From NCBI RefSeq assembly GCF_003334385.1, contig NZ_QOWN01000161.1: DNA of 598 nt; one strand, given 5' to 3'. Under the pieces are notes generated by a model. The model made no database searches, had not been told where the DNA came from, and worked only from the letters and a program-made list of their open reading frames with translations. This stretch comes from Escherichia coli. GTDB taxonomy: Bacteria > Pseudomonadota > Gammaproteobacteria > Enterobacterales > Enterobacteriaceae. Shown piece after piece: positions 263 through 598 of the stretch. Position 1 is the stretch's first letter. Each line of letters starts with the position of its first letter. The position numbers were made by a program, and so were the translations under genes.

Positions 263-349
263 ATGAGTGCTGAACTTATTCGGGCAATGGCATTTGCCAT
301 TCGTATTGTGGCCATTGCTGTTCTGGTCTGGGCAATTCGTTGGTGGTGA
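263..349 (+). CDS. Micro-ORF encoding a 28-aa hydrophobic peptide, paralogue of 129..251; function unknown
   Basis: Frame 2, ATG 263 to TGA 347..349. Translation: [28 protein letters not shown]. One predicted helix with Arg residues and a C-terminal aromatic RWW. Protein-level similarity to 129..251 with silent nucleotide divergence. Its stop is 1 nt before the Rz ATG (TGA-T-ATG). Weakness: the sequence just upstream of the ATG is A-rich (AAAAAG) with no clear GGAGG-type Shine-Dalgarno. Confidence 0.45.
341..345 (+). promoter_or_regulatory. Shine-Dalgarno-like ribosome-binding site for Rz
   Basis: GGTGG at 341..345, followed by a 5-nt spacer (TGATA) and the ATG at 351. It lies inside the 3' end of the upstream micro-ORF, consistent with translational coupling. 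Confidence 0.5.
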
Positions 350-350
350 T

Positions 351-598
351 ATGAACCGTGTTCTGTGTGTGGTGATTATTGTCATGCTGGTAGCCTGTGG
401 TGTGCTTAGTCTGGGGCTGAATCATTACCGTGATAACGCCATAACCTACAAAGAGCAGCGCGATAAAAAAGTCAGTGAGCTGGAGCAGGCAAATGCAACC
501 ATTACTGATATGCAGCAGCGCCAGCGTGATGTTGCTGCACTTGATGCCAGATACTCGAGGGAATTAGCCGATGCGAGAGCTGAAAATGAAACTCTGCG
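351..598 (+). CDS. Rz: Rz-type i-spanin (inner-membrane spanin subunit), lambda Rz family; 5' portion only, truncated by the window's 3' edge
   Basis: ATG at 351 opens a frame that stays open to the window end. Translation: [82 protein letters not shown]. This is an N-terminal hydrophobic signal-anchor followed by a charged, Q/A/R/D-rich helical region. From memory of lambda Rz (..[44 protein letters not shown]..), the [11 protein letters not shown] and [10 protein letters not shown] blocks are near-identical. A Shine-Dalgarno-like GGTGG sits at 341..345, 5 nt before the ATG. Confidence 0.9.
557..560 (+). promoter_or_regulatory. Putative ribosome-binding site for the embedded Rz1 start
   Basis: GAGG at 557..560, about 10 nt upstream of the +1-frame ATG at 571, inside the Rz coding sequence. 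Confidence 0.35.
571..598 (+). CDS. Rz1: Rz1-type o-spanin (outer-membrane lipoprotein spanin subunit); only the first 9 codons are in the window, embedded in the +1 frame of Rz
   Basis: ATG at 571 is in the +1 frame relative to Rz and lies 220 nt into Rz, which matches my recollection of where lambda Rz1 begins inside Rz. Translation is MRELKMKLC..., compared with recalled lambda Rz1 MLKLKMMLC.... A second in-frame ATG at 586 is an alternative start. GAGG at 557..560 is a plausible ribosome-binding site. The lipobox and mature protein are beyond the window. Confidence 0.6.

Follow-up and report, generated by a model that had tools for sequence, protein, structure and literature searches.

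An embedded lambda-family Rz/Rz1 spanin gene pair at the distal end of a lambdoid lysis cassette in Escherichia coli phages and prophages

The window analyzed here, a stretch of 598 nt of Escherichia coli DNA, ends within one open reading frame, and 28 nt before its end a second frame opens inside the first. Do these two fragments belong to a spanin gene pair of the Rz/Rz1 type, and does such a pair still serve the lysis of a phage? The initial annotation of the sequence had proposed an embedded Rz/Rz1 architecture at positions 351-598, with the second frame starting as MRELKMKLC in the +1 frame of Rz at a lambda-like offset. We conclude, at a probability of roughly 97%, that 351-598 is the 5' half of a lambda-family embedded two-component spanin of a lambdoid (Stx-phage-like) E. 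coli phage or prophage. With this assignment, the window becomes the distal end of a lambdoid lysis cassette carried by an E. coli phage or prophage.

Matches of the window and the lysis cassette around it

The whole window (598 bases) is 100% identical to Escherichia phage PhiR5_1 (PV340545.1, 24331-24928) and also to at least 16 E. coli chromosomes, in which it belongs to prophages. The literature yielded no relevant information on PhiR5_1. Matching phage records number 335 and are mostly Stx1- and Stx2-converting phages. Among complete E. coli genomes, 2180 of 5426 contain a match, the median number of matching places in a genome is two, and 6975 of all 7004 such places are chromosomal. Two contexts were fetched, one from PhiR5_1 (L001, PV340545.1) and one from E. 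coli 2018-166 (L002, NZ_CP075632.1). Both show the same order of genes on the same strand: a class II holin S, a lysozyme R (177 aa, hydrophobic at its N-terminus), an antirepressor of the KilAC type, four tiny hydrophobic ORFs and Rz. Upstream of the holin, both contexts carry an esterase-type gene, DUF1378 and DUF826. The holin (phrog_9876/20) and the endolysin (phrog_7) are encoded 1.4-3 kb upstream of Rz/Rz1 on the same strand, so that the pair belongs to a lysis cassette in which inserted morons separate R from Rz. The earlier reading of the region as a lysis cassette for a Gram-negative host is thus borne out by the upstream holin and endolysin and by the lambda-family nature of Rz/Rz1.

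The two contexts also differ in places. Holin S and lysozyme R adjoin in the E. coli 2018-166 prophage (L002 3399-3404), whereas in PhiR5_1 (L001 2449-3292) they are separated by an additional gene, DUF1327, and by a DUF1823 gene on the opposite strand. The KilAC-domain antirepressor gene (phrog_63; L001 4211-4906) sits between endolysin and Rz on the same strand, within the lysis cassette. Neither PhiR5_1 nor E. coli 2018-166 has an stx gene within the 5 kb that precede the window. An Rfam scan of L001 1500-7000 at E ≤ 0.1 gave no match, and promoter-like sites were no commoner than in shuffled sequences.

In PhiR5_1, no further gene separates Rz/Rz1 from cos, which is of the lambda type and follows 368 nt past the Rz stop (L001 6186). 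Its first 41 bases, and 44 of its first 45, are identical to the left end of lambda, and Nu1/A come next. No strong or convincing + strand terminator-like site was found between Rz and cos/Nu1/A in this phage; from lysozyme to terminase, the + strand terminator-like sites amount to three weak 5-bp stems, all inside small ORFs. In lambda, late transcription begins shortly before S and proceeds across cos to the genes for head and tail. The initial annotation had placed the window at the 3' end of a late operon, and Rz/Rz1 does close the lysis cassette. By the lambda paradigm, however, the cassette would be promoter-proximal in the late transcript rather than 3'-terminal, because the lambda transcript begins upstream of S and continues past cos.

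The packaging modules behind the lysis module are not the same in both contexts. In PhiR5_1 it is joined to the lambda-type cos and Nu1/A (L001 5819-6922), while the identical module in E. coli 2018-166 is joined to YlcI/YnfO, an HNH endonuclease and a different terminase pair (L002 5846-9383). Different packaging modules behind an identical lysis module are typical lambdoid mosaicism.

The spanin locus could be part of a decaying cryptic-prophage remnant, whose genes, though apparently intact, have lost their role in lysis in the genome from which the window comes. The chromosomal location of nearly all E. coli matches fits such a view, as many of these prophages are probably defective. However, the window is fully identical to a deposited complete phage genome, PhiR5_1, with E. 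coli C listed as host, both the Rz and the Rz1 ORF are full length, and holin, endolysin, cos and terminase are all found in the context. We therefore consider a remnant very improbable and read the locus as the spanin pair of a lambdoid phage or prophage.

The Rz gene

The first frame begins at ATG 351 and stays open to the end of the window (351-598, + strand), which corresponds to codons 1-82 (248 nt) of Rz as judged from Pfam, PHROG and identity to lambda. The complete gene measures 468 nt in PhiR5_1 (155 aa; L001 5351-5818) and 495 nt in E. coli 2018-166 (164 aa; L002 5351-5845). Its product covers positions 1-125 of the 126 positions of the PF03245 model (3.5e-49) and matches phrog_13 over the full length (2.1e-76). 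The part inside the window alone already matches phrog_13, ‘Rz-like spanin’, at 7.1e-38. An in-frame GTG further upstream (267) was ruled out as the Rz start, since the phrog_13 profile begins exactly at the methionine of ATG 351. A Shine-Dalgarno-like motif for Rz, GGTGGTGA, can be read from the sequence at 342-349 (+ strand) and would overlap the TGA stop (347-349) of the preceding small ORF.

Residues 4-22 (360-416, + strand) form the N-terminal transmembrane anchor, with a best 19-aa Kyte-Doolittle window of 2.97. The protein beyond these residues is polar, and this layout with a single N-terminal TMD, as well as the position of the TMD, is as in lambda Rz. Both Rz proteins are 67% identical from end to end, and Cys99 and Cys153 align with C99 and C152 of lambda Rz. 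The gap-poor alignment to lambda Rz further suggests two coiled-coil domains in the periplasmic part.

The initial annotation had asked for the C-terminus of Rz once the sequence was extended in the 3' direction, and the extension gave a full-length Rz of 155 or 164 aa. The same window sequence runs into two different Rz C-termini, ...LYIREQCLR in the 155-aa protein of PhiR5_1 and ...EYIRTQCTKLAFYYPEDI in the 164-aa protein of E. coli 2018-166. They differ only in the last residues and the divergence starts past the end of Rz1, in a stretch of Rz that has been reported to be variable. The 164-aa Rz overlaps a downstream 74-aa ORF by ATGA.

The product name ‘endopeptidase Rz’ in PV340545.1 and several other records implies another function, namely that Rz is a peptidoglycan-outer-membrane endopeptidase and not a membrane-fusion spanin. 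No protease domain was found in the protein, however: Pfam returned PF03245 and otherwise only weak matches to coiled-coil and membrane families. Moreover, the genetics of lambda favor fusion motifs and a periplasm-spanning complex (PMC5295617, PMC6139136). An enzymatic Rz is thus even less probable than the remnant considered above, and ‘endopeptidase Rz’ is a legacy name for what we regard as a spanin subunit.

The embedded Rz1 gene and the constraint on both frames

The gene for the o-spanin Rz1 starts at 571 in the +1 frame of Rz, and its first nine codons, MRELKMKLC (571-598, + strand), encode the n/h region of a signal peptide. The offset to the Rz start (571-351) is 220 nt. An in-frame TAG at 565-567 precedes the Rz1 ATG. 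The putative Shine-Dalgarno-like motif of Rz1, GAGGGA (557-562, + strand), lies 8 nt upstream of this ATG, and lambda carries AAGGAG in its place. The complete Rz1 gene (L001 5571-5756, L002 5571-5756; 61 aa) lies wholly inside Rz and occupies nt 221-406 of the 468-nt Rz gene, so that only its first 28 nt fall in the window. These 28 nt alone are indistinguishable from chance; the case for Rz1 as a real gene is made by the 3' extension, by homology and by the constraint on both frames.

The extension turned the +1 frame into a 61-aa lipoprotein precursor with a lipobox and a proline-rich mature part, as had been predicted from the partial sequence. The two outcomes named beforehand as refuting the spanin assignment, an early stop of the +1 frame without a lipobox and a truncated Rz, are both excluded. 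The lipobox, VSAC, is found at residues 17-20 with Cys20 as its cysteine, and the +2 residue is Gly, not Asp, meaning that there is no inner-membrane retention residue. The consensus of o-spanin lipoboxes is [LVI][ASTVI][GAS]C (PMC6139136). The cysteine encoded at the very end of the window is Cys9, which belongs to the signal peptide and is C, F or Y among relatives. It is not the lipobox cysteine, which is encoded 32 nt past the window end. The mature part consists of 42 aa, of which 11 are proline, and its Cys30 aligns with C29 of lambda Rz1. In the proline stretch, KPPAPPAW differs from KPPPPPAW of lambda at a single position, with Ala at P34, the one position of the stretch where lambda Rz1 tolerates it (PMC5295617). 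Rz1 spans 0.47-0.87 of the Rz length, which is close to the typical range for embedded spanins (PMC6139136). In profile searches, Rz1 matched PF06085 at 2.1e-21 and phrog_3198 at 1.3e-30. No NCBIfam model scored above its cut-off and PADLOC found no defense-system match for Rz, Rz1 or the small ORFs upstream.

Every feature tested for membership of the lambda Rz/Rz1 family was found, in agreement with the initial view that the architecture is canonical and its novelty low. In lambda (J02459), Rz starts at 45966 and translation from 46186 reads MLKLKMMLC...; we take 46186 to be the start of lambda Rz1, which is not annotated in J02459. The offset is again 220 nt, the proposed Rz1 start within Rz being confirmed in this respect. 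Both systems share the gene-within-gene organization in the +1 frame, the position of the TMD, Cys99 and the C-terminal Cys of Rz, the lipobox of Rz1 at residues 17-20 and its second Cys. The Rz1 proteins are, like the Rz proteins, 67% identical (E = 1e-25) and have the proline-rich region and the C-terminus WQTPLNGIIS in common. They differ in length (60 aa in lambda and 61 aa here, against 153 aa and 155 or 164 aa for Rz), in the lipobox (VVGC in lambda), in the motif PPAPP instead of PPPPP, and in the linker, which is richer in proline here (STPPAPVP versus TSKQSVSQ in lambda). The organization of the cassettes differs as well. Lambda Rz directly abuts R, whereas Rz is here separated from R by about 1.4 kb containing the antirepressor gene and the four tiny ORFs, and lambda S and R have as their counterparts here an S21-like class II holin and the 177-aa lysozyme whose N-terminus is hydrophobic.

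The Rz/Rz1 pairs of Stx-converting and other lambdoid E. coli prophages belong to the same allele family without any substantive difference, and in a published survey 277 of 279 Stx phages carried the Rz pham (PMC8136144). LysB/LysC of phage P2, an overlapped two-component spanin, is alike in functional class and topology, but LysC overlaps LysB only partly, whereas Rz1 lies here wholly within Rz. Matches to the P2-type families are weak (TIGR03495 LysB, E = 0.003, below the cut-off; Pfam LysC, E = 0.16), and membership of the LysB/LysC family was ruled out with scores far below the family thresholds.

Selection on the two frames was assessed in 83 loci, of which 80 are relatives taken from IMG/VR and the others are both annotated contexts and lambda. 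The +1 ORF is intact at offset 220 in 83/83 loci, with a length of 61 aa (60 aa in lambda), and Cys20 and Cys30 of Rz1 are invariant in all of them. Among 40 distinct Rz alleles, the diversity at third codon positions of Rz amounts to 0.148 in the Rz-only stretch before the overlap, to 0.034 within the overlap and to 0.186 in the Rz-only stretch after it. It is thus approximately 4-5-fold lower exactly across the overlap with Rz1. Of the third positions of Rz, 14/62 vary within the overlap versus 44/92 elsewhere (Fisher p = 0.002). Synonymous changes of the +1 frame account for 18/42 substitutions within the overlap, versus 6/58 and 2/24 in the two outside parts (8/82 together). We conclude that both overlapping frames are under purifying selection, because third-position diversity drops and +1-silent changes are enriched inside the overlap. 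A chance alternative-frame ORF from 571 in a genuine Rz, devoid of a functional product, would fit the 28 nt inside the window, the fact that an alternative-frame ORF of 61 codons is not rare in itself and the missing annotation in PV340545.1 and NZ_CP075632.1, but it is effectively refuted by the homology to lambda Rz1 and PF06085 (2e-21), by the lipobox and second Cys that are invariant in all loci, and by third-position suppression and +1-synonymous enrichment that occur only inside the overlap.

Rz1 has no annotation in either GenBank PV340545.1 or RefSeq NZ_CP075632.1, although the exact protein has been deposited at NCBI as ‘Rz1 family lipoprotein’. Embedded Rz1 genes are known to be missed by automatic annotation (PMC8136144), and the o-spanin gene is still overlooked in this way in the phage and chromosome records that we inspected. 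The spanin pair itself is already known, common and ordinary, and there is nothing new in Rz/Rz1. It is a textbook case of two overlapping frames that are both constrained and raises nothing beyond the ongoing questions on lambda Rz/Rz1.

All sequence determinants of the lambda spanin model are present in this Rz/Rz1. In lambda, Rz is located in the inner membrane and Rz1 is an outer-membrane lipoprotein; both form disulfide-linked homodimers, their C-termini bind across the periplasm, and genetic work backs coiled-coil and proline-rich fusion motifs in a periplasm-spanning complex (PMC5295617, PMC6139136). By analogy, Rz would be the i-spanin here, anchored in the inner membrane through its N-terminal TMD and extending a coiled-coil domain into the periplasm. 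For Rz1, translation would begin at a separate start, 571, in the +1 frame; after export and lipidation at Cys20, the protein would reach the outer membrane as an o-spanin of 42 aa that is rich in proline. Holin and endolysin would remove the peptidoglycan first, after which the periplasm-spanning Rz-Rz1 complex would destroy the outer membrane, most likely by fusion with the inner membrane. Localization, disulfide-linked complex formation and the fusion mechanism are carried over from the lambda work and are thus presumed for this pair.

Small ORFs upstream of Rz

The spanin pair had been expected to anchor the interpretation of the ORFs upstream. It does put them inside the lysis region but tells little more, and positions 1-349 are not explained by the spanin. 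Four consecutive tiny single-TMD ORFs of 31, 43, 38-40 and 28-33 aa were observed between the antirepressor gene and Rz. This string of small ORFs occupies positions 1-349 of the window (L001 5001-5349) and L001 4903-4998 on the + strand and corresponds to PHROGs 6632, 4906 and 1115/3246/4493, all of unknown function. The ORFs are labeled ‘hypothetical’ or ‘membrane protein’ in databases. Pfam, like NCBIfam and PADLOC, gave no match for the small ORFs, nor did Pfam for the 50-aa relative of ORF 3.

ORF 1 (1-132, + strand; 43 aa, single TMD; phrog_4906) has a good Shine-Dalgarno motif. ORF 2 (129/135-251, + strand; 38-40 aa; phrog_1115/3246/4493) is hydrophobic and represents a 5'-truncated copy of a 60-aa family. 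ORF 3 (248-349, + strand; 28-33 aa), equally hydrophobic, is a 5'-truncated paralogue of ORF 2 and ends 1 nt before the Rz ATG; its full-length relative is the 50-aa CP-933O protein Q8X4B6. Stop and start codons overlap as GTGA at 129-132 (ORF 1/2) and at 248-251 (ORF 2/3). ORFs 2 and 3 have no clear ribosome-binding sites, and translational coupling to their predecessors is possible.

Since 35 colinear loci contain only 11 variable sites in 350 nt, selection was gauged for ORF 1 only, with more distant copies. In these diverged copies (L046, L062 and L068), the pN/pS of ORF 1 is 0.13-0.8, versus 0.87-1.8 in two control frames. ORF 1 is probably a real gene encoding a small membrane protein. 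ORFs 2 and 3 are paralogous (phrog_4493/3246), with a kinship that is visible at the protein but not at the DNA level, and a repeat search of the window gave only short matches of low identity. Compared with their relatives of 60 aa and 50 aa, which start with M(G/R)KYKR..LRL, both are shorter by approximately 17-22 residues at the N-terminus, and they look like recombination joints rather than whole genes. Instead of being debris of recombination, the small ORFs could encode undescribed membrane peptides that tune lysis, for instance through an effect on the pinholin or on how the membrane-tethered endolysin is released, but we consider this unlikely.

On the minus strand, we noticed an ORF of 123 aa (14-385 of the window) that is antisense to the small ORFs and to the start of Rz and has no PHROG match. 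It probably represents a mere shadow of the hydrophobic, codon-biased genes on the opposite strand.

Other lambdoid loci contain differing subsets of these small ORFs, and the non-lambda architectures that we inspected each have one small hydrophobic ORF ending 1-7 nt before the Rz ATG. In loci L004, L043, L050, L056 and others, the last ~100 nt before Rz encode the unrelated families WKFILIWL... and RAAAFAIRIV..., both of which end with ...IRWW* at the same TGGTGGTGAtATG junction with Rz. The pattern suggests that the TGGTGGTGAtATG junction is a joint conserved for recombination or ribosome binding, and that the slot immediately before Rz takes up varying cassettes.
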